Positions 3,573-61,923 of a stretch of DNA of 64,000 nucleotides are shown one piece after another. Both the position numbers and the translations under genes were made by a program. Location: the NCBI GenBank assembly GCA_009015555.1, contig GCA_009015555.1_3613.1. The stretch is one strand, 5' to 3'. The stretch comes from a phage. How positions within the stretch are numbered: position 1 is the stretch's first letter; each line of letters opens with the position of its first letter. Under the pieces are notes generated by a model. That model saw only the letters and a program-made list of their open reading frames with translations, searched no databases and was not told the origin of the DNA.

Positions 3573-4218
3573 ACAGGTCGCTCCCTTTACAGTCTTGCAC
3601 AAAATCACAAATCTTACGGACCGTGCCGTTCAGATCGCCTTCTTCGTTCAGGATGTCAGTTTCATACATCCGAAGATGTTCAGGAAACTCTTTCGCATAG
3701 ATATATCGGCGAGAATCCCCATCGAAATTGTACTCCGTGCCATCTTTTTTCAGACGGTGGATTCGGACAAGGAAATAGTTGTCCGGGCCAACCACATTCA
3801 CAACCGGGATCGACTCCTCTAAGAAGCCCCCGTCGCTGACCACAACTACCAGTTGCACGTCTGCCGGGGTTTCATCCTTCAGCTTTTGCAACTTGGCGGC
3901 AAATGCCTTACCAAACACATCATTCCCAAATGTGGGCTTCATGATGTTCTCGGAGCAGTGGATCATCCAGTCACGAGGGCTGACGTTTACGCCGTTGATC
4001 TGGAGATACGGGCACGGCTTCTCTTTGTACTCACGCTCATACAGAGCGAACCACAGCTTACGGCTCAGGCCGGATGCCCGGATAGCGATATCGAACAGAA
4101 GTTCCTTGAACTCCATGTGGACGACTTCAAACCCCGGGGTGTTGATATAGCTGTGGAGACCTTCGCACAGTGCATCTTTTCCCGCGCCCGCCGGGGCATT
4201 CAAATTAATCAGAATCAT
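3559..4218 (-). CDS. Deoxynucleoside monophosphate kinase (P-loop)
   Basis: MILINLNAPAGAGKD Walker A at N-terminus; start overlaps upstream stop as TAATG (translational coupling). Confidence 0.72.
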   Translation of the reverse strand: MILINLNAPAGAGKDALCEGLHSYINTPGFEVVHMEFKELLFDIAIRASGLSRKLWFALYEREYKEKPCPYLQINGVNVSPRDWMIHCSENIMKPTFGNDVFGKAFAAKLQKLKDETPADVQLVVVVSDGGFLEESIPVVNVVGPDNYFLVRIHRLKKDGTEYNFDGDSRRYIYAKEFPEHLRMYETDILNEEGDLNGTVRKICDFVQDCKGSDLYVIH

Positions 4219-4529
4219 TAGTGCTCCCACTCCTCTCTGTACCATTTTGGCATAGGTGCCAAATAACCATTCACACGCTCAAGTTCGTTAAGGATCTTCT
4301 CTGCCGAACTTAATTTTGTAAAGCGGCGGAGGGTCTTCCACCCCTTGTAATGAACCGGGAGTTCAAAACACTCATAAGAGCCTTCGCAATACCTGAACTC
4401 TTGAACCCGATACTTAAAGAAATAAGCTCTCGGGTCGTACTGGATTCGATATTTGAACTGATCGCCATTATCCCGATGCGCCTGCTTTTTGTCAAGGGCC
4501 TTTTTCATTTCTTGGGAGATGAACATCAT
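4218..4529 (-). CDS. hypothetical protein (103 aa)
   Basis: ORF with coupled stop/start to downstream kinase gene. Confidence 0.5.
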   Translation of the reverse strand: MMFISQEMKKALDKKQAHRDNGDQFKYRIQYDPRAYFFKYRVQEFRYCEGSYECFELPVHYKGWKTLRRFTKLSSAEKILNELERVNGYLAPMPKWYREEWEH

Positions 4530-4546
4530 TATCCTCCTGTTTCAAA

Positions 4547-4572
4547 AAGAAAAACCGCCCCGAAGGGCGGCT
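4547..4572 (-). terminator. Rho-independent terminator hairpin (CCGCCC-TTCG-GGGCGG family) with T-run on minus strand
   Basis: Minus-strand reading ccaagccgcccttcggggcggtttttcttttt directly after stop of 4577..5659 gene. Confidence 0.6.
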
Positions 4573-4576
4573 TGGG

Positions 4577-5659
4577 TTACAGAATGTTCGCCAGCGTTTT
4601 CTTCATCGCTGCCTTCTCACGAACGTTCTGGCGGTCACGGGCACAAGACCCGCATTCCTGACAACGGTACACCTTAAATTTGGACAGGAAGGTGTGGGCA
4701 GATTTGCCTTTTTCTTCCACCAAGTCGTCGGAACCGCAGCGTACACATCGCATCACAGACTGATCCGGGTGGAACAGGGCAATGTTAGGGTGCTTACGCA
4801 TAAACGGACGAACGGTCAGGTACAGTTCTTCCAATGTCGGGATATCCCCGATGTTGTACTCTTCCATTTCGTCGAATGCCGTAGGATCACCTTCCACACA
4901 GCGACGCCACAGACCGAATCCTTCGTGAGACAACTTACGGCTGTCCAGTTCGAAGTAGTTACACGCCGCTTCCAGTGCATTGGAAGGCAGAGAGAACGAC
5001 TCCTTCAGTGCCGCCAGTGTGTCGATCGTGATATATGGGCTTGGCGGTTGCATACCGTAATATGCGAAACGCTGGTTGGCCCAACCACGGTCGAAACGGG
5101 CGTTGTGTGCAATGAAGATATCACACTCGTCAAGGACTTGCCAGAGATCCTGAATCAGTTTTTTATCCGACTGATGATCCCGTTTGAACTCTTCCGGGTA
5201 GTCGGTCAGTTTACGACTGAAGATGGACGGGTTGTGCAGCCACTTCCCGGCGAACGTCAGCATGTACGGCTCTTGAATAACCTGCTTCGGCGCGATGAAT
5301 TGCTTGAAGCGACCAAACGAATAGGCGATGCTCGGAGAGGTCTCGACATCACCAAGGAACACTTTGGCACCCGGGTTATTTTCCTTCACCTTTTCGATGA
5401 AGGTTTTCTGGATCTCTGCCAGCGTTTTACCACCATTGACTTCCTGCTGCATAAAATCAGCGTACTCATCTGGTGTTGGGATACTGTCAATCAATTGTTG
5501 GACAGTTTCCAGATTACGTGCTTCCAGTTCACGCTTCAGCATGTTGCGTACAGTTGACTCTTGAGATTCCTTGCCCAGTTGACGGGCTACCTCGCGCTGG
5601 GACAACCCACCCTTCATCAGAGCCATAACCTGTTCAACAGTAAAAGTCACATTAGCCAA
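4577..5659 (-). CDS. DEDDy-type 3'-5' exonuclease with N-terminal HTH-like region and C-terminal Cys4 ribbon
   Basis: Exo I DVET, Exo II HNARFD, Exo III YNIGD motifs in order; C-terminal CVRCG...CQECG. Confidence 0.68.
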   Translation of the reverse strand: MANVTFTVEQVMALMKGGLSQREVARQLGKESQESTVRNMLKRELEARNLETVQQLIDSIPTPDEYADFMQQEVNGGKTLAEIQKTFIEKVKENNPGAKVFLGDVETSPSIAYSFGRFKQFIAPKQVIQEPYMLTFAGKWLHNPSIFSRKLTDYPEEFKRDHQSDKKLIQDLWQVLDECDIFIAHNARFDRGWANQRFAYYGMQPPSPYITIDTLAALKESFSLPSNALEAACNYFELDSRKLSHEGFGLWRRCVEGDPTAFDEMEEYNIGDIPTLEELYLTVRPFMRKHPNIALFHPDQSVMRCVRCGSDDLVEEKGKSAHTFLSKFKVYRCQECGSCARDRQNVREKAAMKKTLANIL

Positions 5660-18550: not shown

Positions 18551-19201
18551 ATGAACGAAATGCTTATGCTTGGGCAGGCCAAAGCTAAAGCTGGCCTGGA
18601 TATTGATTTTGAAGACGCCGAGATTGGCAGCACCACGATTGTGGACAAGAACGGACATCCTTTCACACTCGTTGGTACTATCGCGACTGGTGGTGGGGTA
18701 GTCGAAGACCCCGAGGTAGGGAAGTGCTTCTACTTCCCCGGTACGGGATACTTCGAAACCCCTATGGTAAAGGACCTTCAACTCGCTGGAGTACCTGTCA
18801 TGATCGAGGCGGTATTTAAGTGGGACGGTGCCGCAGGAGGGTCTATCTGGGAGACTGGGAACTACCCCAGTGGACGACCACCAACACCCGGCATTTGCCT
18901 TAGTGTTGGTCAATACCCTGCTACGTACATCCAGTATTTCATGATGTATACCAACGGGTCTTGGGGCCGTGGCCTACCTCCAGCTACAACCTTCACCGGG
19001 GAATGGGAGACTGTAACCTTCCAACGGTCAAATGATGGAACGGGACCAATGGTTGTTTATCGCGACGGTGCCGAGTTCTCCAGGGTTGCCTTGGGTCCAA
19101 GCCCGATCGGTAATGGAAGCAAGCTGTCGGTTGGCGGGTCGTACACATACGGTGCCTATTGGAAGGGACGCCTGAAAAGTCTTAAAATTACACCACTCTA
19201 A
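18551..19201 (+). CDS. hypothetical protein with possible concanavalin/LamG-like fold
   Basis: GGAGGA RBS before ATG at 18551; C-terminal WKGRLKSLKI reminiscent of LamG domain ends; tentative. Confidence 0.45.
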   Translation: MNEMLMLGQAKAKAGLDIDFEDAEIGSTTIVDKNGHPFTLVGTIATGGGVVEDPEVGKCFYFPGTGYFETPMVKDLQLAGVPVMIEAVFKWDGAAGGSIWETGNYPSGRPPTPGICLSVGQYPATYIQYFMMYTNGSWGRGLPPATTFTGEWETVTFQRSNDGTGPMVVYRDGAEFSRVALGPSPIGNGSKLSVGGSYTYGAYWKGRLKSLKITPL

Positions 19202-23477: not shown

Positions 23478-23553
23478 GCTGGATTAGCTCAGTAGGTAGA
23501 GCGCCTCACTTGTAATGAGGATGTCGCGGGTTCGATTCCTGCATCCAGCACCA
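23478..23553 (+). tRNA. tRNA-Thr (anticodon TGT)
   Basis: Cloverleaf read by eye: acceptor gctggat/atccagc, anticodon loop cttgtaa, T-loop ttcgatt, CCA encoded. Confidence 0.8.
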
Positions 23554-23559
23554 GATCAT

Positions 23560-23636
23560 GCAACGTTGCCGGAGTCTGGTAACGGCTCTCGCTGCAAACG
23601 AGATGAGCACTGGTTCGAATCCAGTACGTTGCTCCA
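23560..23636 (+). tRNA. tRNA-Cys (anticodon GCA)
   Basis: Acceptor gcaacgt/acgttgc, anticodon stem tctcg/cgaga, loop ctgcaaa, T-loop ttcgaat, CCA. Confidence 0.75.
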
Positions 23637-23637
23637 A

Positions 23638-23714
23638 GCGCCTTTGGTCCAATTGGTAGAGGCACTACATTCAAAATGTAGGGGTTCCCAGTTCGAATCT
23701 GGGAAGGCGCACCA
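23638..23714 (+). tRNA. tRNA with CAA anticodon (Leu by anticodon) but short variable arm
   Basis: Acceptor gcgcctt/aaggcgc, anticodon stem ctaca/tgtag, loop ttcaaaa, T-arm cccag-ttcgaat-ctggg, CCA; only 5-nt variable region. Confidence 0.6.
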
Positions 23715-23730
23715 AAATTTATGTAACCTA

Positions 23731-23759
23731 TTGACATAGTGTAATTATACTGCTAATAT
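23731..23759 (+). promoter_or_regulatory. Sigma70-type promoter for the small gene embedded in the tRNA array
   Basis: TTGACA 23731-23736, 17-nt spacer, TAATAT 23754-23759, then RBS and ATG at 23786. Confidence 0.6.
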
Positions 23760-23785
23760 GGATACACTAATTCAATGGGGGCATT

Positions 23786-24160
23786 ATGAGCAAGGCTGCG
23801 ATTGTAACTCGTAAGCGTGGTCGCCCAAGCAAAGAAGAGAGCACAGCAATCGCCCTTGAAAAGGCAATGCTTGATCTCCGAGGCGAATTGGCCCGTCTGA
23901 CGCCGAAGGCCATTCATACTCTCGAAAACCTGCTCACAACAGGCACAGAGAAAGTGAAGGAAACCACGGCGAAGTATATCCTTGAGCAGGCGAAAGAGGT
24001 TAACAACCTCTATACTGAAGAGGATAACGAAGACGACGCAGCAGGCGGCACAACATCTGCCTCTTCTGAAACTCACGCTGGTTCTTCTGACGAGATGAAA
24101 AATGCCATCCCGTTGACAACCCAGATTCGTGAGTATAAAGCAGTAGGCGAAGATGATTAA
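23786..24160 (+). CDS. small protein with AT-hook-like RKRGRPSK motif (124 aa)
   Basis: Own promoter, RBS and downstream hairpin; basic N-terminus, acidic Ser/Thr-rich C-terminus. Confidence 0.5.
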   Translation: MSKAAIVTRKRGRPSKEESTAIALEKAMLDLRGELARLTPKAIHTLENLLTTGTEKVKETTAKYILEQAKEVNNLYTEEDNEDDAAGGTTSASSETHAGSSDEMKNAIPLTTQIREYKAVGEDD

Positions 24161-24162
24161 CT

Positions 24163-24190
24163 GGAAGGCTCCCGAAGGAGCCTTTATTAG
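24163..24190 (+). terminator. Terminator-like hairpin
   Basis: aaggctcccgaaggagcctt hairpin followed by tattag (weak T tract). Confidence 0.4.
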
Positions 24191-24325
24191 AAGTTCTCTT
24201 TTGACGGGCACTTGTTAACGACCCGCAGAATGACGACGGTGTACAACGGCGTTTGATGGCGAGGAAGGTCTATAGGGATCAGCGCAGATCCTTGGATGTC
24301 AGGTGAGCCGTACAAAAGAGAATTT

Positions 24326-24413
24326 GGGGAGTTATTTCCGTAGAGGTAGCGGTGCAGACTGTAAATCTGTTGTCATTGCGACTCGGGTGGTTCGACTCCA
24401 TCACTCCCCACCA
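24326..24413 (+). tRNA. tRNA-Tyr (anticodon GTA), long variable arm
   Basis: Acceptor ggggagt/actcccc, anticodon loop ctgtaaa, T-loop ttcgact, CCA. Confidence 0.75.
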
Positions 24414-24419
24414 AATTAT

Positions 24420-24514
24420 AGTAGGATGGCTGAGTGGCTTAAAGCAGCATCTTGGAAAGGTGTCGGATCAGGTAACCCCTGGTCCCGGGAGTTCAAATCT
24501 CCCTCCTACTGCCA
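24420..24514 (+). tRNA. tRNA-Ser (anticodon GGA), long variable arm
   Basis: Acceptor agtagga/tcctact, anticodon loop cttggaa, T-loop ttcaaat, CCA. Confidence 0.7.
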
Positions 24515-24518
24515 GACC

Positions 24519-24595
24519 GGATCGTTAGCTCAATTGGTTAGAGCAAGGGACTTTTAATCCCGAGGTTCGGGGTTCGAGTCCCTGACGGTCCACCA
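24519..24595 (+). tRNA. tRNA-Lys (anticodon TTT)
   Basis: Acceptor ggatcgt/acggtcc, anticodon loop cttttaa, T-loop ttcgagt, CCA. Confidence 0.75.
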
Positions 24596-24760
24596 GAAAG
24601 GAAGAGGGTCCAAGCTGGTAATGCGAGAGGCGAGTCCTCAGACCAAAGCCCAGATGGAGGCCACCCTAAAGTCGTCCAACCGAAGGTCCCTGATTGAGTA
24701 ATACTTCCCCGCTTGTCGGGTACAGTTCTCAGTCACACCGGAAGGGGCGCACCCTATAAT

Positions 24761-24836
24761 TGACGGTGAGCATATAAGGACATGCGGGGGCCTGTTAAGT
24801 CCAGGATAGCTGGTTCGAATCCAGTACCGTCAGCCA
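24761..24836 (+). tRNA. tRNA-Asn (anticodon GTT)
   Basis: Acceptor tgacggt/accgtca, D-stem gcat/atgc, anticodon loop ctgttaa, T-loop ttcgaat, CCA. Confidence 0.7.
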
Positions 24837-24945
24837 ATTTGGTTCCGACAAGGTGACGGCGCACCCCGGAGCGACGCTGAAAGATGCAGGCCGACGAACA
24901 CATACGTGTACTTAATCAATAGTCATTGCGATGGCTATTCGTTAA

Positions 24946-25023
24946 GTCCTGGTAGACAAACTGGATAAAGTCACCACCCTTTCAAGGTGGGGTTTGAGGG
25001 TTCGATCCCCTCTCAGGACGCCA
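24946..25023 (+). tRNA. tRNA-Glu (anticodon TTC)
   Basis: Acceptor gtcctgg/tcaggac, anticodon stem ccacc/ggtgg, loop ctttcaa, T-loop ttcgatc, CCA. Confidence 0.75.
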
Positions 25024-25117
25024 ATCTTTTAGGTCGGTAGATTAATGAGCAAAGGCCGCTCGCTGGATTCCAACCCCAGTTCAAGGCGTTCGATTCGTCA
25101 CCTTCCTGCCAAATTCA

Positions 25118-25193
25118 GGTCCTATGGTATTAGCGGTAAACATACTCGCCTGTCACGCGAGAGTCACGGGTTCGAATCCCGTTAGGACCGCCA
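25118..25193 (+). tRNA. tRNA-Asp (anticodon GTC)
   Basis: Acceptor ggtccta/taggacc, anticodon stem ctcgc/gcgag, loop ctgtcac, T-loop ttcgaat, CCA. Confidence 0.75.
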
Positions 25194-25200
25194 CTTCAAA

Positions 25201-25275
25201 TGGGGATTAGCTCAGGGGTAGAGCGCACAACTGATAATTGTGAGGTCGGTGGTTCGAAACCACCATCCCCAACCA
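25201..25275 (+). tRNA. tRNA-Ile (anticodon GAT)
   Basis: Acceptor tggggat/atcccca, D-arm gctc-aggggta-gagc, anticodon loop ctgataa, T-loop ttcgaaa, CCA. Confidence 0.75.
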
Positions 25276-25345
25276 AACAGCCCCTCCCGGGATTGGACCG
25301 GGTTAACGGCAATCGCACACTGAGGCGTCTTCCGGGGGAACAATA

Positions 25346-25422
<77 letters not shown>

Positions 25423-25428
25423 AATTAT

Positions 25429-25503
25429 TGCGAGGTAGTTCAGCGGTAGAACAGGGGTTTCATACGCCTCATGTCGGCAGTTCGATTCTGCCCTTCGCAA
25501 CCA
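25429..25503 (+). tRNA. tRNA-Met (anticodon CAT; initiator, elongator or Ile-lysidine type not distinguished)
   Basis: Acceptor tgcgagg/cttcgca, anticodon loop ttcatac, T-loop ttcgatt, CCA. Confidence 0.7.
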
Positions 25504-25509
25504 AATCAT

Positions 25510-25587
25510 GCTCCAGTAGCCCAATTGGTAGAGGCACTTGATTTAGGATCATGTCAGCGATGAGTTCGAATCTCTCCTGGAGTACCA
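25510..25587 (+). tRNA. tRNA with TAG anticodon (Leu by anticodon), short variable arm, weak T-stem
   Basis: Acceptor gctccag/ctggagt, anticodon stem cttga/tcatg, loop tttagga, T-loop ttcgaat with only ~3 bp T-stem, CCA. Confidence 0.5.
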
Positions 25588-25593
25588 CATAAA

Positions 25594-25667
25594 GCGGGCA
25601 TGGTATAGTGGTTGTGCCTTAGCCTTCCAAGCTAATGAGTCCGGTTCGATCCCGGATGTCCGCTCCA
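25594..25667 (+). tRNA. tRNA-Gly (anticodon TCC)
   Basis: Acceptor gcgggca/tgtccgc, anticodon stem ttagc/gctaa, loop cttccaa, T-loop ttcgatc, CCA. Confidence 0.75.
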
Positions 25668-25740
25668 ATTCACGGTGAGTCACTGCCGTTAAGTGTGAAG
25701 TTAAAAATGCCCGTGGTGATCGGGTTATCTCACCCAGTGT

Positions 25741-25816
25741 AGGGGATTAGTTTAATTGGTAAAACATCGGGTTTTGATCCCGACATCGCGAGGTTCGAAT
25801 CCTCCATCCCCCGCCA
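25741..25816 (+). tRNA. tRNA-Gln (anticodon TTG)
   Basis: Acceptor aggggat/atccccc (A1-C72 mismatch), anticodon stem tcggg/cccga, loop ttttgat, T-loop ttcgaat, CCA. Confidence 0.7.
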
Positions 25817-25898
25817 CATTAATGCTCATTAGCTCTTGTCAGTGGAACTCGAACCCTTAGAGCAGGCGACACAGACGTGTGTTTTAGTGAGCATCAAT

Positions 25899-25974
25899 GT
25901 GGCCTTAATTCAGCAGGTAGAATCCCCGGTTGTGAACCGGGCAGTCGTGGGTTCAAGTCCCACAGGTCACCCCA
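25899..25974 (+). tRNA. tRNA-His (anticodon GTG)
   Basis: Acceptor gtggcct/aggtcac, anticodon stem cccgg/ccggg, loop ttgtgaa, T-loop ttcaagt, CCA. Confidence 0.75.
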
Positions 25975-25978
25975 ATCT

Positions 25979-26071
25979 GGAAGATAGGGCGTAGTGGTAC
26001 GCACCCGGATTTGAACCCCGGCCCGCTGTGGCGACCCCACGGTGATAGTTCGACTCTATTATCTTCCGCCA
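25979..26071 (+). tRNA. tRNA-Ser (anticodon TGA), long variable arm
   Basis: Acceptor ggaagat/atcttcc, anticodon loop tttgaac, long variable arm, T-loop ttcgact, CCA. Confidence 0.65.
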
Positions 26072-26092
26072 CCCCTGATCATAAGGCAAACT

Positions 26093-26785
26093 ATGTTAGA
26101 AATGTTAACAGTGGGTAAATACACCCCTAGTCCTATAATTTCTAGCCCTATGGATGCTTATTTTGAGGGCGAGAGGAATAATAAATACGGCACTGTTGAG
26201 TGGGTTGTTCCTCAAGGCGTCACCTCAATCTGCTGTGTAGTGATAGGCGCAGGATCTTCTGGCAGAAGCGGCGGTCTTTCTTGGAGAAACAACATTCCAG
26301 TTACACCTGGTGAAAAACTTAAAATGCAGGTTAACTCCACAGCCAGCGCCCTCTTGAGAGAGACAACTATCCTTTGTGCTGCCCAGTGTGGCGGCAACGG
26401 AGGAAAAACATATAACTCTGTGAACGACGGTGGAGGCAATGCTGGACAATCACCACATGGTAGAGGTGGTGCTGGCGGCTACACCGGGAATGGTGGTGAT
26501 GGGCATACGTTCACAGGTGGTCCAGGACCAGGGTCCCCAGGTTCAGGTGGCGGCGGCGGCGGAGGCGCAGTTGTGTATCTGAACGGATCATTGACACCAA
26601 CTGTCTGCGGCGGAGTCGGCATGTATGGACAGGGGTCGAATGGTGGCGCTGATAACAGCGCCGGATATCCAGGCTCCGGCGGTTCTGGAACAAGATACGG
26701 AAGAGCAGTCGATGGTTATGGTGTTGTCAGGGTTGTGTGGGGAAATTATTCATTCCCAACAAATGCCCCGAGACCGAAATCCTGA
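26093..26785 (+). CDS. glycine-rich hypothetical protein (~230 aa) embedded in tRNA array
   Basis: Start taken at MLEMLTVGKY (track ORF start at 26042 lies inside tRNA-Ser); Gly-rich GGxGG runs and C-terminal GYGVVRVVWG. Confidence 0.5.
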   Translation: MLEMLTVGKYTPSPIISSPMDAYFEGERNNKYGTVEWVVPQGVTSICCVVIGAGSSGRSGGLSWRNNIPVTPGEKLKMQVNSTASALLRETTILCAAQCGGNGGKTYNSVNDGGGNAGQSPHGRGGAGGYTGNGGDGHTFTGGPGPGSPGSGGGGGGGAVVYLNGSLTPTVCGGVGMYGQGSNGGADNSAGYPGSGGSGTRYGRAVDGYGVVRVVWGNYSFPTNAPRPKS

Positions 26786-26856
26786 TAGGGATGGTCCCTA
26801 CGAGGATCGTCTTTTGCTCAGTGGTACTCAGCATTTACTTAGTATTCAAACAATAT

Positions 26857-26943
26857 AGAAGAGTGGCGAAATAGGTAGCCGCACCGGACTGCTAATCCGG
26901 GGTCCTTCGGGGCCTGAGAGTTCAAGTCTCTCCTCTTCTGCCA
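26857..26943 (+). tRNA. tRNA-Ser (anticodon GCT), long variable arm
   Basis: Acceptor agaagag/ctcttct, anticodon stem ccgga/tccgg, loop ctgctaa, T-loop ttcaagt, CCA. Confidence 0.75.
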
Positions 26944-26948
26944 AGCAT

Positions 26949-27024
26949 GGAACTGTAGCTCAGTTGGTAGAGCGGTTGCCTGAAGAGCAGCGCGTCAGCG
27001 GTTCAAATCCGTTCAGTTCCACCA
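26949..27024 (+). tRNA. tRNA-Phe (anticodon GAA)
   Basis: Acceptor ggaactg/cagttcc, D-arm gctc-agttggtaga-gagc, anticodon loop ctgaaga, T-loop ttcaaat, CCA. Confidence 0.8.
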
Positions 27025-27066
27025 CATTCTAACAAGAATAAAATATCTCCTCTCCTTCGCCTCAGT

Positions 27067-27091
27067 GCCCTCCTTCGTGGAGGGCTTTTTT
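27067..27091 (+). terminator. Rho-independent terminator closing the tRNA array
   Basis: gccctcc-ttcgt-ggagggc hairpin followed by tttttt. Confidence 0.65.
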
Positions 27092-27130
27092 ATTTCTGGT
27101 TTCGGTGATAAAATACCCAAAGGAGGTATT

Positions 27131-27502
27131 ATGACAACTTTCATATTGAAGTACAAGAAGTACCTGATCGGCATCGGGGTCGCGGCCCTTCTGCTGTTCT
27201 CCTTTAATTGGTATGTCGGCACCAAGGAGGATGCGGCTTATGACCGTGGCTTTCAGTATGCAAACACCCAGTGGGAGAAAAAGGGAAAAGAGTACGTTGA
27301 TCTTATCGACAAAGGTAAGGCTGACAACACGGCTCTTAATGAAGAACTGGCTCGGGTATCTGAGGAAAAGCGTAAGCTGGAAGAAGCCCGCCGTCATAAT
27401 GTAAACGACAAACAGGTCGAATACAACAAAACTGAAGCCGCCCGGAAGAAAGGGTTGGACGATGACTTTGTGGATCTGTACAACGAATCCTTGGGGGACT
27501 GA
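27131..27502 (+). CDS. i-spanin-like (Rz-like) inner-membrane lysis protein
   Basis: AAAGGAGG RBS; N-terminal TM helix LIGIGVAALLLFSF then charged coiled-coil region. Confidence 0.58.
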   Translation: MTTFILKYKKYLIGIGVAALLLFSFNWYVGTKEDAAYDRGFQYANTQWEKKGKEYVDLIDKGKADNTALNEELARVSEEKRKLEEARRHNVNDKQVEYNKTEAARKKGLDDDFVDLYNESLGD

Positions 27503-27816
27503 TGAGAAAATTTATTCTCGGAATGTTCATGGTTCTGGCACTGTCAGCGTGCAGCAACAAAGACAGAATCCCAGAGGTTGCCTTCAAGGGCACCACGGTA
27601 GAAGACCTTGTAGATAAGCCGGACCGAGAGCTAATGCGTAAGGCTCCACCAAAGCAGTACCTCAAGAAAGGTACAGACAACGGTGAAGGCGCGGTTGTTA
27701 TAAGTAACAACAACTTGCGGGCAGCGACAGTCGAGCGCAGGCTCGAAGACCTCCAGCAATACGTCTGCAACCTCTTCCAAGACCCAGTTGGGGAAGTCTG
27801 CGTAAAGGGTAAGTGA
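27502..27816 (+). CDS. o-spanin-like (Rz1-like) outer-membrane lipoprotein
   Basis: Lipobox LALSAC after signal peptide; ATGA overlap with upstream i-spanin-like gene. Confidence 0.62.
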   Translation: MRKFILGMFMVLALSACSNKDRIPEVAFKGTTVEDLVDKPDRELMRKAPPKQYLKKGTDNGEGAVVISNNNLRAATVERRLEDLQQYVCNLFQDPVGEVCVKGK

Positions 27817-34922: not shown

Positions 34923-34982
34923 TTCCCTCCGGCCCCCGTGCGGGGCCATCCTCCTCCAATCCCGCCTCCGGAGAAGCAAGTA

Positions 34983-53497: not shown

Positions 53498-54142
53498 ATG
53501 GCAGAGGAAATTGTACTGAAGGATGTTAACCACATCCACCCTCTGCCGGATTTCGTGAAGGGAGGTTTTGATTACGTCCCTTCCGATATTTTCACAGGCA
53601 AAGAGAACTTCGAGAAGACCCTCCGGATCTTGTTGGAGCGCCTTGAGTATATCGACCAAAAGATGGTTGAACTTGCTGAACTGCGTACCACATTGAACGC
53701 AGAAGACGCCATCCTTGACGAAATCGGCAGACAGTTGGGCATTTACCGTAACGGCCTGAATGACCCCGAGTACCGTGCTGTTATTATGATCTTGACCGGG
53801 AACAACTCCAAGAGCGGGACCCGCGCCGATATCATTGCCACCCTGAAGCAACTCTTCGGGGAAGACGGAGTTACGACCTACAAGGGGCACAACTACCGTC
53901 TCGATATTAACATTTTCAATACCTGTATGGAAGTCACCGACATCCTGCCGGAGATCATCGACATGCTTCCCTTGGTCACTCACCTCCGTGTGGTTGAGAA
54001 CCAGGGTTACCCATTCGGTTTCAACGGTGACGCACAGGCATTTGGGTTCGCATCGGTTTATGACTCAGAGCGTACCGGGGCAGGTGGCATGTCCACCCTA
54101 ATTTATGTATCGGACGACGAGGAAGACTGGTCGTTCACGTGA
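53498..54142 (+). CDS. baseplate/tail protein (I-like, putative)
   Basis: Position following J-like gene. Confidence 0.4.
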   Translation: MAEEIVLKDVNHIHPLPDFVKGGFDYVPSDIFTGKENFEKTLRILLERLEYIDQKMVELAELRTTLNAEDAILDEIGRQLGIYRNGLNDPEYRAVIMILTGNNSKSGTRADIIATLKQLFGEDGVTTYKGHNYRLDINIFNTCMEVTDILPEIIDMLPLVTHLRVVENQGYPFGFNGDAQAFGFASVYDSERTGAGGMSTLIYVSDDEEDWSFT

Positions 54143-54152
54143 GGAGATTTTC

Positions 54153-55808
54153 ATGGCTAAACCAAAGGACCCTATTTACGTTTGGGCTGCTGCCGACGTA
54201 AACCTTCCAGGCACGGGTCGTCCTAACAAATCAAAACCTATTGACGACTTGCTCGCCAAGGGTTACGATAAAGGACAAAAGCCAGCAGCAGAAGAGTTCA
54301 ACTATATCCTGAATATGTCCTCTGCCTGGGTTAACTGGATCGTCAACGAGAAGTTTCCAGAGCTTGAGGCAGAAATCGCCCGGCTCTTGGCAGAACTTGA
54401 AAACCGCATCAACCAGCAGTTGGCTGTTATCCGTCAGGATATTGCCCAACTGAAGCAAGATGTCGCAGACCTTCGTCGGTATGTCGATCAGAAGGTTCAA
54501 GAACTGAAGCAAGAAATCCAAGGCGTCCGAAACGACCTGAACAAACTGCGTCAAGACTTTGATGCTGCGATTGCTCAAGTCAACGGACGAATTGATGACC
54601 TTGAGCCACGCCTTGTTCCAATCGGTGCCGTTATCCCTTGGCCTGGGGCTACAGTCCCTAACGGCTGGTTGGAGTGTAACGGCCAGGTGTTTAATACCGG
54701 GACAAACCCTAAGCTGTATGGAGTCTTGGGGCGTAACGTTGTTCCTGACTACCGTGGTCTCTTCCTGCGCGGCTGGGCACACGGCTCCGGTGCTAACGAT
54801 CCTGATGCTGGTCGTGCTCTCGGTTCTGTTCAGGGTGACGCCATCCGTAACATCACGGGTTACTTCCCTGCGGATATCGGTCAGTCAGGCTGGATCGGTC
54901 GTTACGTTGGTGGTGTGTTCCGGGACGATGGCGCACTGACCTCTGGTGACCAAGGATCTCGTAGTGGTGAAGTACGTAAGTATAGCCTCGATGCTTCCCG
55001 CCAGGTCCCAACGGCCCCGGAAAACCGTCCGAAGAACGTCGCGGTTATGTACATCATCAAGACTGACCAGGCACAATCCTCCGGAGGCAACTCACCAACG
55101 GCGATCGTCGTCTCTCCAGACACAATCACCAACCGTGTAGGATACACCGTCAAAGCGACTGCGAGTGTACTCCCTGCTTCCATCGCAGGTCAATACCCTG
55201 TAACATGGTCTACTCAAAATGCTGCGGTGGCAACGGTTGATGGTTCTGGCAACATCCGCCTTGTAGGGCCGGGTGAAACCAACATCATCGCTTCCATCTC
55301 TACCGGGATGAACGTAGCGATCCGTGTGACGAGCTATTCTGTTCTGACCAGCATCTCCATTGCTGATCCGGGCCAGATTCCGGTCACAGAATCGAAGATG
55401 CTGGTTGTTACCAAAAACCCGGGGAGCGCGAACGAACCTCTGCAATTCCTGTCAAATAACTCCGGTGTTGCGACTGTGAACGACGCAGGTTACGTAACTG
55501 GTGTTTCCCCGGGAAGTGCCACAATCACGGTTCGTGGTACTCTTTCCGGAGTGTCATCAACTCGTTCAGTGACTATTATCCCTGAGCAAGTGGAGGAGAG
55601 CGTACAGGACAACCGTCTCGGTGCGGTAGGATCTTACATCCCACCCGGCAACGAAATCAGTTGGACTTTCCAAGCCCCTCAAGGTTGTGCTCTGACAGGT
55701 ATCATCGTACAAGACGTCGGGTCCAACTCCGCCGACAACATCGGTGGTGTTTATTACAAACCGATCCAGAAGAAAGTTAACGGCGTCTGGGTCACGATCA
55801 CGGGGTAA
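54153..55808 (+). CDS. Tail fibre protein with coiled-coil, tail-collar-like and Ig-like regions
   Basis: RBS GAGGAG; heptad region LAELENRINQQLAVIRQDIAQLKQDVADLRR; IPWPGATVPNGWLECNGQ...PDYRGLFLRGW resembles phage tail-collar domain. Confidence 0.62.
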   Translation: MAKPKDPIYVWAAADVNLPGTGRPNKSKPIDDLLAKGYDKGQKPAAEEFNYILNMSSAWVNWIVNEKFPELEAEIARLLAELENRINQQLAVIRQDIAQLKQDVADLRRYVDQKVQELKQEIQGVRNDLNKLRQDFDAAIAQVNGRIDDLEPRLVPIGAVIPWPGATVPNGWLECNGQVFNTGTNPKLYGVLGRNVVPDYRGLFLRGWAHGSGANDPDAGRALGSVQGDAIRNITGYFPADIGQSGWIGRYVGGVFRDDGALTSGDQGSRSGEVRKYSLDASRQVPTAPENRPKNVAVMYIIKTDQAQSSGGNSPTAIVVSPDTITNRVGYTVKATASVLPASIAGQYPVTWSTQNAAVATVDGSGNIRLVGPGETNIIASISTGMNVAIRVTSYSVLTSISIADPGQIPVTESKMLVVTKNPGSANEPLQFLSNNSGVATVNDAGYVTGVSPGSATITVRGTLSGVSSTRSVTIIPEQVEESVQDNRLGAVGSYIPPGNEISWTFQAPQGCALTGIIVQDVGSNSADNIGGVYYKPIQKKVNGVWVTITG

Positions 55809-57463: not shown

Positions 57464-60400
57464 GTGTCATCCAATACTGATATCATTGCCCTGTTGAGCA
57501 GCGATGCTGACAAGGCAGTTGACCAGATCATCGAAGACTCCAAACGTCTTCACATCGTGGTCAACGGGACGGGCACCGAGCAGGCTGTTGCAGAGGATGG
57601 GAGCTTGCTCCCGTCTGTTCGCAAAGCGCTGATCGACAACCTGTATTTCAAAACCCCACCTCTTCCCTGGAGAAACGGTGGGTCTGTCAACGAGTTCAAC
57701 CAGCTTTACTCCTTCACCGACGTAAGCGGGAACACCACTTGGTGGTATGCGCCCGGAGCTACGGTATCAAACCCGGTTGTGATGCGTGACAGCCCGATCA
57801 ATGACGGCAAGTTCAAGGTTTTCTTGGACAAAACCAACATCGCCGATATCTATGCCCCTCTGAACTCTCCGAACTTCGTCGGTAACCCCCGTGTGCCTAC
57901 CCCGGCCCCTGGCGACAACAGCCAAACCGTCCCGACAACCGGGTGGGTTCAGTCAGAGATGCAGGACCTGGAAGACCAGATCATTGCCTCTATGAAGGGT
58001 GATTTCGAAAACATCACCGTCCGTAACGATGCCGTTCTCAAAGACACGTATATCAGCGGTGAGTTCATTGTCACCAGTGATAAGTTGTCCGCTGCCAGCG
58101 CCGAAGCAACCTTCCGTCGTATTCGTGTGGTCGGCACCGCAGACAATACTGAGATCGCTTTTGAGCAGAACACCGCACCTCCAGCGGGGGCGAGCACAAA
58201 GACTAACATCAAGCCGTACACGATGTCAACAGGCATCTTGACGATTGACCAGTTGAAAGGAAAATCTGCCCAGATTGGTGATGTTGCTGTTGCCACGGAC
58301 TCCCTGAATGTCGATGGGTACATGCGTGGGGATTACCTGCATCTGGAAGGTAACAACCGAAACAGCACAACCCGCCCTCAGTTGATCGTTGATGGTATTG
58401 CAGAGATCAATACGCTGCGGGTGACTGGAACCATCGAGGGTGTAAAAGCTGATGTTGATGGCTTGGATATTCATCCTCGTAGTGTTATCATCGACGAAGG
58501 TTTGACGGTTGGCAAAGATACCTCCCTGACAGGAAAGCTGACTGTCGGCGGTACAACCAAGGTGAATAACCTGGAGGTTACTGGAACCCTGTCTGGTGTT
58601 GCTATCAGTGTTGACGGTAAAGACATCAAGCCCCGCTCTGTTAACACCGGGAACTTGGTTGCTACTGGCAACGTGCAGATCAGTGGGACGACCACTGCAA
58701 CCGGGAAGATCACAACTCAAGATCTTGAAGTGCTTGGCACACTGACAGCTAACCTCGACCTGTCCGGGTCGGATCTGAGTGTTGATAATATCAACGTTGC
58801 AGAAACCGCGACAATAAAGGATTTGGTGGTTACCGGAAAAACAACCGGGGTCAAAGGTGACGTTGATGGAACCTTGATCAAGCCTTCTTCTGTTCAGGCA
58901 ACGGGCCTTGTGTCAGCAGGTTCATTGTCTACCAATGCAAATGCCTCTATCGGGGGTAACCTGACGGTGACTGGAGAGTTCCGTCCCGCCAGCATGGAAA
59001 CAGGTGCAGTTGAGGCAGATAGTCTGGTTGTTAATGGTAACATTTCCCAGACGACAGGAACAACCTCTGTAGTCAACCTGGTTGTCACAGGAACGACAAC
59101 TGGCGTAACAGCCGATGTCAATGGTGACGACATTTTGCCTCGCTCCGTGACTACTACTGCGGGGGTTAAAGTCGGAACCACCCTCGACGTAACTGGAAAG
59201 ACTACCCTCGGAGATGTTGATTTCACTGGGGTTGTTACCGGGCTTGAACTTGATCTTTCTCAAAAGAACGTGACAGTTAAGTCAATTGCTGCTGTAGATC
59301 CTTCTGCATTTGGGGATGTGACGACAGATAATCTGACCAACAGCGAGAAGATCATCACTCAAGACATCCAAGTTCTGGGTGATATTCTGGATGCTGCGGG
59401 GAATCCTGTCAACACCTTTGATGTTACAGGCAAAGATATTCTGCCAAACAGTGTTCAATCTGCGACGTTTATTCGCGGAAAAACTCTGGACATCAGTGAC
59501 GGTTCCACCCTCCGTGGCCCTGTCGAGTTCCGTAACGGGCTGACAGTAACTCTTGGAGACATCATGTCGCCCCAAGGGAAGGCAACGTTCAACGATGTAC
59601 AGGTCAATGGTGCATTGACGGACGCTAACGGCAACGTCATCGGCTCCGTTGAAAGCATCAAGGGCAAGGACATTGAACCACGCTCCGTTGTGGCTACCGT
59701 GTCTGTACAGGCCCCTCGTCTCCAATCAACTGGGGATATTTTGGGCCAGAGCGCGACAATCACCAATAACGTCTCTGCGGGGACCTTGGGTGTTTCCGGG
59801 TTGACAAACCTGGCAGAAACTCGTGTGAATGCGAAGCTAACAGGGCAATCCACAGAGTTCGAAACTCTGCTCCTGAAGCGCGTTGCTGGTCAAGATACAC
59901 CTCGCTTGGTTGTGCAGGGGGATTCAGATCTCCAGGGGGACCTGAACGTCTCGGGGACCATTACCGGGATTGTTGACCTGACGGCTCAAGATATCCGTAT
60001 GAACAGCCTTGTGCTCGCCGAGGATCTTTCTGCAAGGAATATTACAGGATCAGGCACGGTTCAGGGCGCTAATGGAATTTTCGGCCAGTCTTCCCAGCCC
60101 ACCACCCAGTACGGTTTGCAGTCTCTTTCCAGCGCTAAGGTAGATAAAAACCTCGATGTTGGAGGAAACTTGCGGGTAACTGGGGCCATTACCGGAAGTA
60201 TGGACTTCACAGGGAAGGATATTACCCCACGGAGTGTCGCGGCGTCAGCCGGAATCGGGGCCGTGGATATCACGGCATCCGGCACGACAACGACGAAGGA
60301 CCTTGTGGTCACCGGGACGACAAGTTTTGCGGGAGACAGCGTTTTCAATGCAGGCCAGGTTAAGTCCAAGTTGTTCACCGTTGACATTGGTACTGATATC

Positions 60401-60688
60401 ACTTCAGGATCGGGGTCTTGGATTCCAGACGGGCTTCAGTCCGTTTATAACGTGACGGTTACCGCCGATACCGTTATCGGTTCCATTGCTCAGTTGCCGG
60501 GCGCGGGGACTTACTTCTTCTATATCGAGCAGGATGCTGTTGGGGGCCACACTGTGACCTTTGACCCAGCTTACCTCAAGATTGGTGATGGAGAAGTGGC
60601 TACAGCGCCAAACGCAATCTCTCTGGTCCAAGTAATCTACCGTGGTAAAGGTTCAATCTTCGACTACGTGATTCTTAACCGAGGTTAA
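57464..60688 (+). CDS. Long tail fibre protein with internal repeated modules (GTG start)
   Basis: 1074-aa protein with repeated VTGT..GV..DVDG.DI.PRSV units; RBS GAGGAG before GTG. Confidence 0.62.
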   Translation: MSSNTDIIALLSSDADKAVDQIIEDSKRLHIVVNGTGTEQAVAEDGSLLPSVRKALIDNLYFKTPPLPWRNGGSVNEFNQLYSFTDVSGNTTWWYAPGATVSNPVVMRDSPINDGKFKVFLDKTNIADIYAPLNSPNFVGNPRVPTPAPGDNSQTVPTTGWVQSEMQDLEDQIIASMKGDFENITVRNDAVLKDTYISGEFIVTSDKLSAASAEATFRRIRVVGTADNTEIAFEQNTAPPAGASTKTNIKPYTMSTGILTIDQLKGKSAQIGDVAVATDSLNVDGYMRGDYLHLEGNNRNSTTRPQLIVDGIAEINTLRVTGTIEGVKADVDGLDIHPRSVIIDEGLTVGKDTSLTGKLTVGGTTKVNNLEVTGTLSGVAISVDGKDIKPRSVNTGNLVATGNVQISGTTTATGKITTQDLEVLGTLTANLDLSGSDLSVDNINVAETATIKDLVVTGKTTGVKGDVDGTLIKPSSVQATGLVSAGSLSTNANASIGGNLTVTGEFRPASMETGAVEADSLVVNGNISQTTGTTSVVNLVVTGTTTGVTADVNGDDILPRSVTTTAGVKVGTTLDVTGKTTLGDVDFTGVVTGLELDLSQKNVTVKSIAAVDPSAFGDVTTDNLTNSEKIITQDIQVLGDILDAAGNPVNTFDVTGKDILPNSVQSATFIRGKTLDISDGSTLRGPVEFRNGLTVTLGDIMSPQGKATFNDVQVNGALTDANGNVIGSVESIKGKDIEPRSVVATVSVQAPRLQSTGDILGQSATITNNVSAGTLGVSGLTNLAETRVNAKLTGQSTEFETLLLKRVAGQDTPRLVVQGDSDLQGDLNVSGTITGIVDLTAQDIRMNSLVLAEDLSARNITGSGTVQGANGIFGQSSQPTTQYGLQSLSSAKVDKNLDVGGNLRVTGAITGSMDFTGKDITPRSVAASAGIGAVDITASGTTTTKDLVVTGTTSFAGDSVFNAGQVKSKLFTVDIGTDITSGSGSWIPDGLQSVYNVTVTADTVIGSIAQLPGAGTYFFYIEQDAVGGHTVTFDPAYLKIGDGEVATAPNAISLVQVIYRGKGSIFDYVILNRG

Positions 60689-60726: not shown

Positions 60727-61923
60727 ATGTTTCCTTTTGCTATTATTCCACCGTTTGTTCTTTCAGGCAAGGAAAAAATCAAGCAGTTTTCGGTTACGTC
60801 TTACGACAGTATGGTCCTGACTGATAAGGGGAACCTGTATGTTACAGGATTCAACCGGGTGGGTGAGCTTGGTGTTGGGGACACAACTAACCGAAATAAC
60901 CAATGGGTTTTGGTAATGCAGGACGTAAACTGGATTGCAAGCAACCGTGAGAAGCTGTGGGCAATTAAGAACGACGGTTCCATTTACACCCCGGATCTTC
61001 GGTCATCCAGTACAACTGCATATACTTGGCAAATCGACACGGTAGCACCTGGAAGTATTGGGGATTTGTCTGGGGATAATATCAAGGAGATTTACAGCGA
61101 CACAGAGAGCGTATATATCCTCAAAAAGGATGGTTCACTGTGGTATCTGGGAAATAACTCTAAAGGCCAAGCTGGAAACGGGGGAACTTCCTTAACCACA
61201 CGCTTTGTGAAGGTTTCAGATGGTGTGGTATCTTGGTCATCCAGTGGACCCACTGTTGTTTTCGTGAAAACAGACGGATACTTCTGGGGCTGCGGATCAA
61301 ATTCCCGAAATATCATTTCCTCTGCTGGCAGCAGTATCACAACCCCTACCCGGATGTTTAGCACCACCCACGCTGACGGAGGTGTTGTAACAGATTACAC
61401 GCTGGCCTCTGACCAAGCGTTTTTGATCAGATATAGTAATGGTAAATATCGTACCAAAGGTCTCAATATCGGACAACTTCCTTCAGGGGATGCAAGTCCA
61501 TACAATACCCTTACGGACGTTCCTGACGGATACACCCCCGGTGATGGAACGGAGCCTCTGGTAAGCAAAACAGGAGGGGTGTCGGCCTCTGGAACTTGGC
61601 CTAACTATAGTGGTCTTTTCTTCTACCATACGGGAGGGAAATTCATAGTCACTGGTCAAGCAAGCGGGAGAATTTCCGGGACCAGCCAAACCAGCGGTAC
61701 ACTCTCAAACTGGACCAATGTCGATGCGGCAAGTGACGAGATCCCATCTATCAAGGGAATGACCTTCGGACTGGGTTGGGTTGCTGCCTACAACGATACG
61801 CAGATTCTGTACTGGGGGTATACGGGAAACTCCTCTGCATATCCGGTTGTGGGATACCTAATGCCCGGACCTTCAAGGCTTGAATATGTGGCACGTTTTG
61901 CAACCCCGCCGATCGAGGCATAA
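60727..61923 (+). CDS. RCC1-like repeat (beta-propeller) protein
   Basis: Recurrent G.N..GQ.G.G / LG.G units (GFNRVGELGVGD, GNNSKGQAGNGG, GLNIGQLPSG). Confidence 0.5.
   Translation: MFPFAIIPPFVLSGKEKIKQFSVTSYDSMVLTDKGNLYVTGFNRVGELGVGDTTNRNNQWVLVMQDVNWIASNREKLWAIKNDGSIYTPDLRSSSTTAYTWQIDTVAPGSIGDLSGDNIKEIYSDTESVYILKKDGSLWYLGNNSKGQAGNGGTSLTTRFVKVSDGVVSWSSSGPTVVFVKTDGYFWGCGSNSRNIISSAGSSITTPTRMFSTTHADGGVVTDYTLASDQAFLIRYSNGKYRTKGLNIGQLPSGDASPYNTLTDVPDGYTPGDGTEPLVSKTGGVSASGTWPNYSGLFFYHTGGKFIVTGQASGRISGTSQTSGTLSNWTNVDAASDEIPSIKGMTFGLGWVAAYNDTQILYWGYTGNSSAYPVVGYLMPGPSRLEYVARFATPPIEA

Follow-up and report, generated by a model that had tools for sequence, protein, structure and literature searches.

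How does a gene for a small glycine-rich protein come to lie among the tRNA genes of a phage, and what does its product do? This question is raised by a 64,000-nucleotide stretch of phage DNA (contig GCA_009015555.1_3613.1 of GenBank assembly GCA_009015555.1; hereafter the window), in which a coding sequence on the plus strand, running from an ATG at 26093 to a stop codon that ends at 26785, specifies a protein of 230 amino acids. An earlier note, made from the sequence, had described here a glycine-rich open reading frame (ORF) of ~230 codons between tRNA-Ser(TGA) and tRNA-Ser(GCT), and had guessed at a structural fibre-like or envelope-targeting role. Size, composition and tracts proved to be as described, including the C-terminal GYGVVRVVWG, and ARAGORN confirmed the position between these two tRNA genes. 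By analogy with related proteins of other phages, the chances seem slightly in favour of an optional virion protein that is anchored by a short N-terminal tag and contacts the host surface.

The protein contains 56 glycines among its 230 residues (24%; 39% over residues 96-205), which is the highest glycine fraction among the 50 ORFs of at least 150 amino acids in the window, and its tracts include GGNGGK, DGGGNAG, GRGGAGGYTGNGGDG, GSGGGGGGGA and PGSGGSG. Such a biased composition, together with the lack of a Pfam match to the protein and the missing or faulty annotation of such genes in several phage records, could be read as the mark of a spurious or decaying ORF, a reading frame of low complexity in the DNA that separates two tRNA genes. 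This explanation is refuted, and we leave it virtually no probability. When the gene is compared to that of an 82%-identical homologue (P0002), synonymous sites are saturated (pS, the proportion of differing synonymous sites, 0.80) whereas only 12.6% of the non-synonymous sites differ (pN 0.126); a 67%-identical homologue (P0003) gives a similar pattern, motifs are kept across thousands of homologues, and the predicted structure reaches a predicted local distance difference test (pLDDT) score of 92.6. The limited non-synonymous change, the saturation of synonymous sites and the thousands of homologues argue that the ORF is neither a chance product nor a low-complexity artefact, and by these comparisons it is a genuine gene under purifying selection. 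Its G+C content is 0.52 and that of the window 0.513. An in-frame GTG at 26042, upstream of the ATG, overlaps the tRNA; the conserved N-terminus of the family, MLE(L/M)L, fixes the start of the coding sequence at 26093. An E. coli assembly encodes the identical protein on a contig of 149,946 bp; its NCBI entry reads 'hypothetical protein F9047_10900 [Escherichia coli]'.

To which family does the protein belong? Pfam returned no match to it even at E≤1, the gathering score of the PF21722 (Gly_rich_2) hidden Markov model not being reached, and PHROG 4474, of unknown function, matched it with an E value of 9e-35. A word-index database search recovered 113 homologues, mostly of 230-280 amino acids and from phage-sized contigs, that have in common the motifs VPxGVTS, GGGLSWRNNIPVTPGE, INDGGGNGG, GGGAGGYTGNGG, GGGGGGG and GAVRIIWGxxRxFP; tblastn against a phage collection, run with the low-complexity filter active, gave one partial match. 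Nine of the 79 aligned subfamily members matched PF21722 directly (best E value 5.1e-11), and hhalign aligned the family profile to seven Pfam-positive segments with a probability of 99.9% and an E value of 2.8e-36 over 210 columns, from VPxGVTS to VRIIW, these segments having been picked from proteins found by that very profile. A profile search of 1.84 billion representatives matched 5,959 cluster representatives (1,749 with an E value of 1e-30 or less), and in many of these matches the domain is C-terminal or tandem in proteins of 500-5,000 amino acids that carry He_PIG Ig-like or F5/8-C lectin domains. As judged from these profile comparisons, the protein belongs to the Gly_rich_2 superfamily of phage, bacterial and giant-virus 'glycine-rich domain-containing proteins', with which it shares VPxGVTS, GGGxGG, GGAGGYxGxGG and GAVRIIW although it falls below the Pfam model. 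The homology search proposed in the earlier note thus leads to a known family, but not to a well-characterised one: Pfam assigns PF21722 no function, and a literature search for this entry found nothing. Sequence searches of the PDB, whether started from the protein or from the profile, returned nothing but spurious linker or tag matches. The other glycine-rich ORFs of the window, at 34938-38264 and 39313-40683 on the plus strand (17.7% and 21% glycine; PHROG 3904 and 5073), were considered as paralogues and rejected, for they are collagen-like tail fibres unrelated to the glycine-rich gene. Long G-X-Y runs characterize collagen-like proteins, whereas the protein studied here has GGxGG and GxGG repeats without G-X-Y periodicity.

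The structure predicted by AlphaFold2 with the family alignment (predicted template modelling score, pTM, 0.90) divides the protein into four parts, all given here with their plus-strand coordinates. Residues 1-14 (MLEMLTVGKYTPSP; 26093-26134) form the N-terminal tag, which has a pLDDT of 61 and no predicted secondary structure and is proposed to be a docking peptide. Residues 15-115 (26135-26437), including VPQGVTS and GGLSWRNNIPVTPGE, make up the main part of a TNF-like β-sandwich, to which residues 160-169 and 211-216 also contribute in the model. The glycine-rich region, residues 116-210 (26438-26722; ~39% glycine), is confidently predicted, mostly without helix or strand, contains the β-hairpin at 160-169 and may form a polyglycine-II 'brush'. 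Residues 211-217 (26723-26743; VVRVVWG, family consensus VRIIWG) are the closing β-strand. The earlier note had called GYGVVRVVWG a hydrophobic C-terminus; the segment is present, but a C-terminal membrane anchor was rejected since the segment forms the final, conserved strand of the sandwich, 'GAVRIIWG' across the family. Neither a signal peptide nor a transmembrane segment could be read off the protein sequence.

The best structure match of the model was the tail fibre gp24 of cyanophage Pam3 (score 9.1), and it also matched the glycine-rich domains of invertebrate and human ALK (8.3 and 7.6, respectively) and, in mycobacteriophage Bxb1, the 'tail wing brush' gp33 (7.4) and the tail spike gp29 (6.3). 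Among predicted viral structures, the matches were to 'glycine-rich domain-containing', minor tail and baseplate proteins. In the model, glycine-rich segments emerge from a TNF/jelly-roll-type β-sandwich, the arrangement that defines the TG fold, and tail-fibre and tail-tip proteins of phages have the fold predicted here, a TNF-like β-sandwich with a polyglycine region. In Pam3 gp24 (PDB 7YPX), a docking element is combined with two domains, one TNF-like and one glycine-rich, and the variable distal tips of the latter are proposed to bind the receptor (PMC9608196). The two proteins also differ: gp24 docks via a long α-helical trimeric bundle (PMC9608196), whereas residues 1-14 of our protein have no predicted helix and its sandwich begins at residue 15; gp24 requires the chaperone gp25, whereas the neighbours of our gene are tRNA genes and a spanin pair, with no adjacent chaperone gene; gp24 is the sole fibre of its phage, whereas our gene is optional; and gp24 gave no sequence match in the PDB search. 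In Bxb1, gp33 and gp29 (PDB 9D93) carry polyglycine 'brush' domains at the tail tip, gp33 being 230 amino acids long as well. The Bxb1 wing is a dispensable, accessory tail structure, and mycobacteriophage tail-tip 'brush' domains are thought to touch the cell envelope (PMC12646305, PMC13243795). The TG or glycine-rich domain of ALK and LTK (PDB 7LIR, 7LRZ, 7NX3) is only 15-19% identical to our protein and comes from an unrelated context, the ectodomain of animal receptor tyrosine kinases that binds ALKAL1 and ALKAL2. Glycine-rich motifs in a polyglycine-II arrangement are also found at the receptor-binding tip of the gp38 adhesin of Salmonella phage S16 (PDB 6F45; PMC9608196), but the organization of gp38, with a polyglycine-II sandwich after a β-helix and an N-terminal gp37-attachment domain, is not that of the protein described here.

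The N-terminal peptide provides a link to proteins of other folds. The glycine-rich protein starts with MLEMLTVG, 34 of the 79 family members start with M-[LIF]-E-x-[LMI], and the motif M-x-E-[LMI]-[LM] also begins proteins of this phage group that have unrelated C-terminal domains. Among window ORFs of at least 120 amino acids, only two genes begin with M-x-E-[LMIV]-[LMIV], 26093-26785 and 18551-19201. The latter, also on the plus strand, encodes a LamG/concanavalin-like protein of 216 amino acids (MNEMLMLG; PHROG 6011 'virion structural protein') that is 99% identical to a protein of Cronobacter phage CR3. Further tagged proteins are CR3 gp263 (MNEMMIVS), with a weak, sub-threshold LamG-like match; gp268 of Cronobacter phage CR8 (MLEIMTAA; PHROG 6011); the product of the second gene of contig L004 (MLELLSIP; LamG_3); CB7_251 of Certrevirus CB7 (MNELLLIG from an upstream ATG), likely of LamG type; and CB7_55 (MQEMMIVTS), whose C-terminal domain differs by eye from those of the other tagged proteins. 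Rak2-like jumbo phages have another tag, MLPFxR..YGN, on kelch, LamG and glycine-rich proteins (CBB_548-554, CBB_144, 121Q gp243), and in a third lineage MF(S/I)xMRxAMF is common to the glycine-rich protein and the product of its neighbour gene. The Pectobacterium jumbo phage protein CBB_144 (and 121Q gp243/P0025) belongs to the same subfamily as our protein, with which it shares GGGLSYRNNIPV, INDGGGNGG and GGAGGYSGSGG. It has the same stand-alone size and is likewise inserted among non-structural genes, but it carries the tag MLPFxxL(I/V)xYGN instead of MxE[LM][LM] and its C-terminal strand has diverged.

Several of these tagged or glycine-rich genes are poorly represented in the public records (positions are given within the loci compared, numbered L001 onwards). 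The annotation of CB7_251 (L014:4748-5392) probably lacks 30 codons, that of KaOmega gp315 (L013:2414-3295) is too long, and the LamG gene of L004 (~1023-1727) has a mis-annotated start, the real one being MLELLSIP. The MxE-tagged glycine-rich homologue of EspYZU08 (L003:3001-3738) is unannotated, and that of phAPEC6 (L010:3001-3735) is partly annotated, which makes it undetectable in the proteome of that phage. In phAPEC6 the homologue is flanked by RCC1-repeat proteins, several of which were detected in virions by mass spectrometry (MS).

Are such proteins part of the phage particle? CBB_144, which sequence comparison identifies as a clear member of the glycine-rich family, was found in purified CBB virions by tandem MS with electrospray ionization (ESI-MS/MS), with 5 peptides and 34% coverage, and 5 of 7 tagged array proteins were also detected (PMC5259590). 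MS of CB7 virions identified CB7_55 (4 peptides) and CB7_251 (1 peptide), both encoded outside the structural module (PMC7344957). In the cryo-electron microscopy (cryo-EM) study of Certrevirus phiTE, pTE203 was the most abundant virion protein left unplaced in the map (PMC11972413). The CB7 record lists phiTE_203 as the counterpart of CB7_251, and we take pTE203 to be phiTE_203 and hence this counterpart; its absence from the map would fit a small head on a flexible tether. Together with a fold like that of Pam3 gp24 and Bxb1 gp33, the detection of CBB_144 in virions lends partial support to the structural fibre-like or envelope-targeting function guessed at in the earlier note.

A broader interpretation, to which we give a little less than an even chance, is that the N-terminal peptide acts as a lineage-specific 'address tag' that docks interchangeable small binding heads onto one common virion site. 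The heads would be polyglycine brush, LamG, kelch and other domains, and the tags M-x-E-[LM]-[LM] in Vequintavirinae, MLPFxR..YGN and MF(S/I)xMRxAMF. If true, these phages would have a modular, plug-in repertoire of optional adhesins, with genes that enter plastic regions, such as the spacers between tRNA genes, as small insertions; it could explain why proteins detected by MS, such as pTE203, are absent from cryo-EM maps, and possibly the 'hairs' of CBB and phAPEC6. Neither a lineage-specific N-terminal tag shared by different folds nor the repeated inter-tRNA insertion of such genes was found in the literature searched.

The tRNA array forms the setting of the gene. tRNA genes were called with ARAGORN and cross-checked with Rfam, which supports an array of 18 tRNA genes at 23478-27024. 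ARAGORN missed an additional tRNA-Tyr(gta) at ~24326-24410 (plus strand), which is identical to the tRNA-Tyr of the CR3 record and gave only a weak match to the tRNA-Sec model of Rfam, so that the array holds 19 tRNA genes, not 18. The tRNA and lysis genes of the window are 97-99% identical to those of CR3 and CR8 (Vequintavirinae, Certrevirus), and the window represents a Certrevirus genome of the CR3 kind. Alignment with CR3 shows identity through tRNA-His and again from tRNA-Ser(gct) on, and a segment absent from CR3 at 26072-26856, which comprises, on the plus strand, a 21-nt leader with an AAGG, the coding sequence and a 71-nt trailer. It is bordered on the left by tRNA-Ser(tga) (25979-26071, plus strand; called by ARAGORN, with a sub-threshold match to the tRNA-Sec model only in Rfam) and on the right by tRNA-Ser(gct) (26857-26943, plus strand; ARAGORN and Rfam). 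In CR3 the two tRNA-Ser genes are separated by 4 nt and an unrelated gene, for the 221-residue gp263, lies between tRNA-His and tRNA-Ser(tga), whereas in the window tRNA-His adjoins tRNA-Ser(tga) and 785 bp separate the tRNA-Ser genes. The glycine-rich gene is therefore a 785-bp insertion in an inter-tRNA spacer relative to CR3, and each of the two phages holds a small inserted gene in a different spacer. The glycine-rich gene is missing from CR3 and CR8, and is thus optional; both carry a tagged gene of LamG type in a nearby spacer, and in CR8 another gene lies between tRNA-Asp and tRNA-Ile. In KaOmega an MxE-tagged glycine-rich homologue lies 3' of tRNA-Phe. Two tagged glycine-rich genes stand in tandem directly before the spanin genes of a Plesiomonas-associated phage contig (L007:3176-4000 and 4001-4744), a 266-kb contig holds another such tandem pair (L023:2855-3574 and 3588-4319), and in contig L004 the 82%-identical homologue is immediately followed by the LamG-type gene. 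From these sequence comparisons, the tRNA array is a hot spot where small genes come and go.

Adjacency to tRNA genes was considered as a trait of the family and rejected, because none of six other family loci has a tRNA gene within 3-4 kb; the position among tRNA genes thus mirrors a plastic Certrevirus region, not the function of the protein. In other phages, family members lie within operons for replication or nucleotide metabolism: PVP-SE1 gp018 (L012:2998-3840) adjoins a DNA polymerase gene that a LAGLIDADG endonuclease interrupts, and CBB_144 (L011:3001-3765) sits between nrdD and the nrdD activase gene. A tagged glycine-rich homologue (P0037, MFELLSS...) is also found in a Salmonella Newport contig (L021:4001-4828), in a chromosomal island beside mutS that also carries cdtA/cdtB/cdtC-like toxin genes and a phage integrase.

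No sigma-70-like promoter site was seen between 24760 and the glycine-rich ORF, and the unit formed by the tRNA genes and the ORF probably ends at a strong terminator-like GC-rich hairpin with a T-run at 27067-27085 (plus strand), 3' of tRNA-Phe. Since no promoter-like site accompanies the ORF and the terminator-like element lies only past tRNA-Phe, the ORF is probably transcribed within the tRNA precursor, from which tRNA processing would free its mRNA. The spanin pair (27065-27502 and 27502-27816) and the large terminase gene lie 3' of the array.

How might the protein work? It would be a stand-alone 'TG' or 'brush' domain protein, in which glycine-rich segments extend from a TNF-like β-sandwich and a flexible tag of ~12 residues lies ahead. 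The protein would be built into the virion, where the tag M-x-E-[LM]-[LM] would dock it onto a shared particle site, leaving the glycine-rich tip to touch the host cell surface. It may then serve as an optional adhesin that tunes adsorption or host range and not as an essential fibre. Several observations weigh against this interpretation. The virion support comes from relatives (CBB_144) and from proteins that share the tag (CB7_55, CB7_251, pTE203), none of which is an MxE-tagged glycine-rich protein: the tagged Certrevirus proteins confirmed by MS carry other C-terminal domains, and the glycine-rich member confirmed by MS, CBB_144, carries a different tag (MLPF...YGN). Detection of CB7_251 relies on a single peptide. 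Furthermore, PVP-SE1 gp018, a tagged glycine-rich homologue, is annotated as hypothetical only, although the PVP-SE1 virion was analysed by MS.

This last point would also suit a non-virion accessory factor acting inside infected cells or at the cell envelope, for instance in superinfection exclusion or anti-defence. We regard such a role as unlikely, yet it agrees with a gene that lies outside the structural module in a tRNA array probably transcribed before the late genes, with homologues among replication and nucleotide-metabolism genes, and with the one homologue that accompanies cdt-like toxin genes in a chromosomal island of Salmonella. However, CBB_144 is a virion protein despite its place between nucleotide-metabolism genes, as are the tagged CB7_55 and CB7_251 despite theirs outside the structural module, and the glycine-rich protein has no signal peptide or transmembrane segment. 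If it is a virion protein, it could reside inside the head. The internal proteins of phage T4 are unrelated small proteins encoded at variable places in the genome that have a short tag in common. The tag pattern described here recalls them, and a capsid-targeting sequence of this kind, on a protein packed in the head and ejected with the DNA, would agree with tagged proteins that MS finds in virions but that have no assigned place in cryo-EM maps. We nevertheless find this improbable: the known structures with this fold are all external tail components or extracellular receptor domains, other tagged proteins bear LamG, kelch or lectin-like binding domains, and the tag, with Glu3 as its only conserved acidic residue, seems unlike a targeting peptide of ~10 residues that ends at a prohead-protease site (the protease of this phage is of S78 type). 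A primary receptor-binding fibre, that is, an essential minimal trimeric fibre docked on the baseplate like Pam3 gp24, is very improbable in spite of the similar fold, given that the gene is absent from CR3 and CR8, the closest phages, that several large tail-fibre proteins are encoded in the window (fibre genes lie at 34938-38264, 39313-40683, 54105-55808 and 57464-60688) and that the protein has no long N-terminal helical domain.

The surroundings of the gene yielded further observations. The LamG-type gene at 18551-19201 is remote from the structural module and lies directly 5' of the genes for phosphoribosyl pyrophosphate (PRPP) synthetase and nicotinamide phosphoribosyltransferase. At 60727-61923 (plus strand), 3' of a tail-fibre gene of 1074 codons, the window encodes a 398-residue RCC1-repeat β-propeller protein. 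The public records of CR3 and CR8 have no annotated tRNA-Ser(tga); the gene lies at ~L001:3160-3250 in CR3, right after gp263 (gp267 in CR8) and 4 nt before tRNA-Ser(gct). In addition, no tRNA-Glu is annotated in the CR8 record, and CR3 carries between tRNA-Asn and tRNA-Glu an HNH endonuclease gene (L001:981-1337) that is lacking in the window (24836-24946).

What, then, does this gene add to the biology of these phages? The domain is already known, in Pfam as Gly_rich_2 and structurally as the TG or 'brush' fold; Pam3 gp24 and Bxb1 gp33 are precedents for its small, tethered architecture; and one member of the subfamily already has proteomic support. As one further uncharacterised member of a large family of glycine-rich phage proteins, the gene is of modest direct importance. 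Of wider interest is that closely related phages carry different small tagged binding proteins at different places, and that at least three such proteins are virion components. If the tag is a docking signal, it would offer a simple handle for fixing new binding domains to the particles of Vequintavirinae and jumbo phages, and a testable account of host-range differences between near-identical therapeutic phages.
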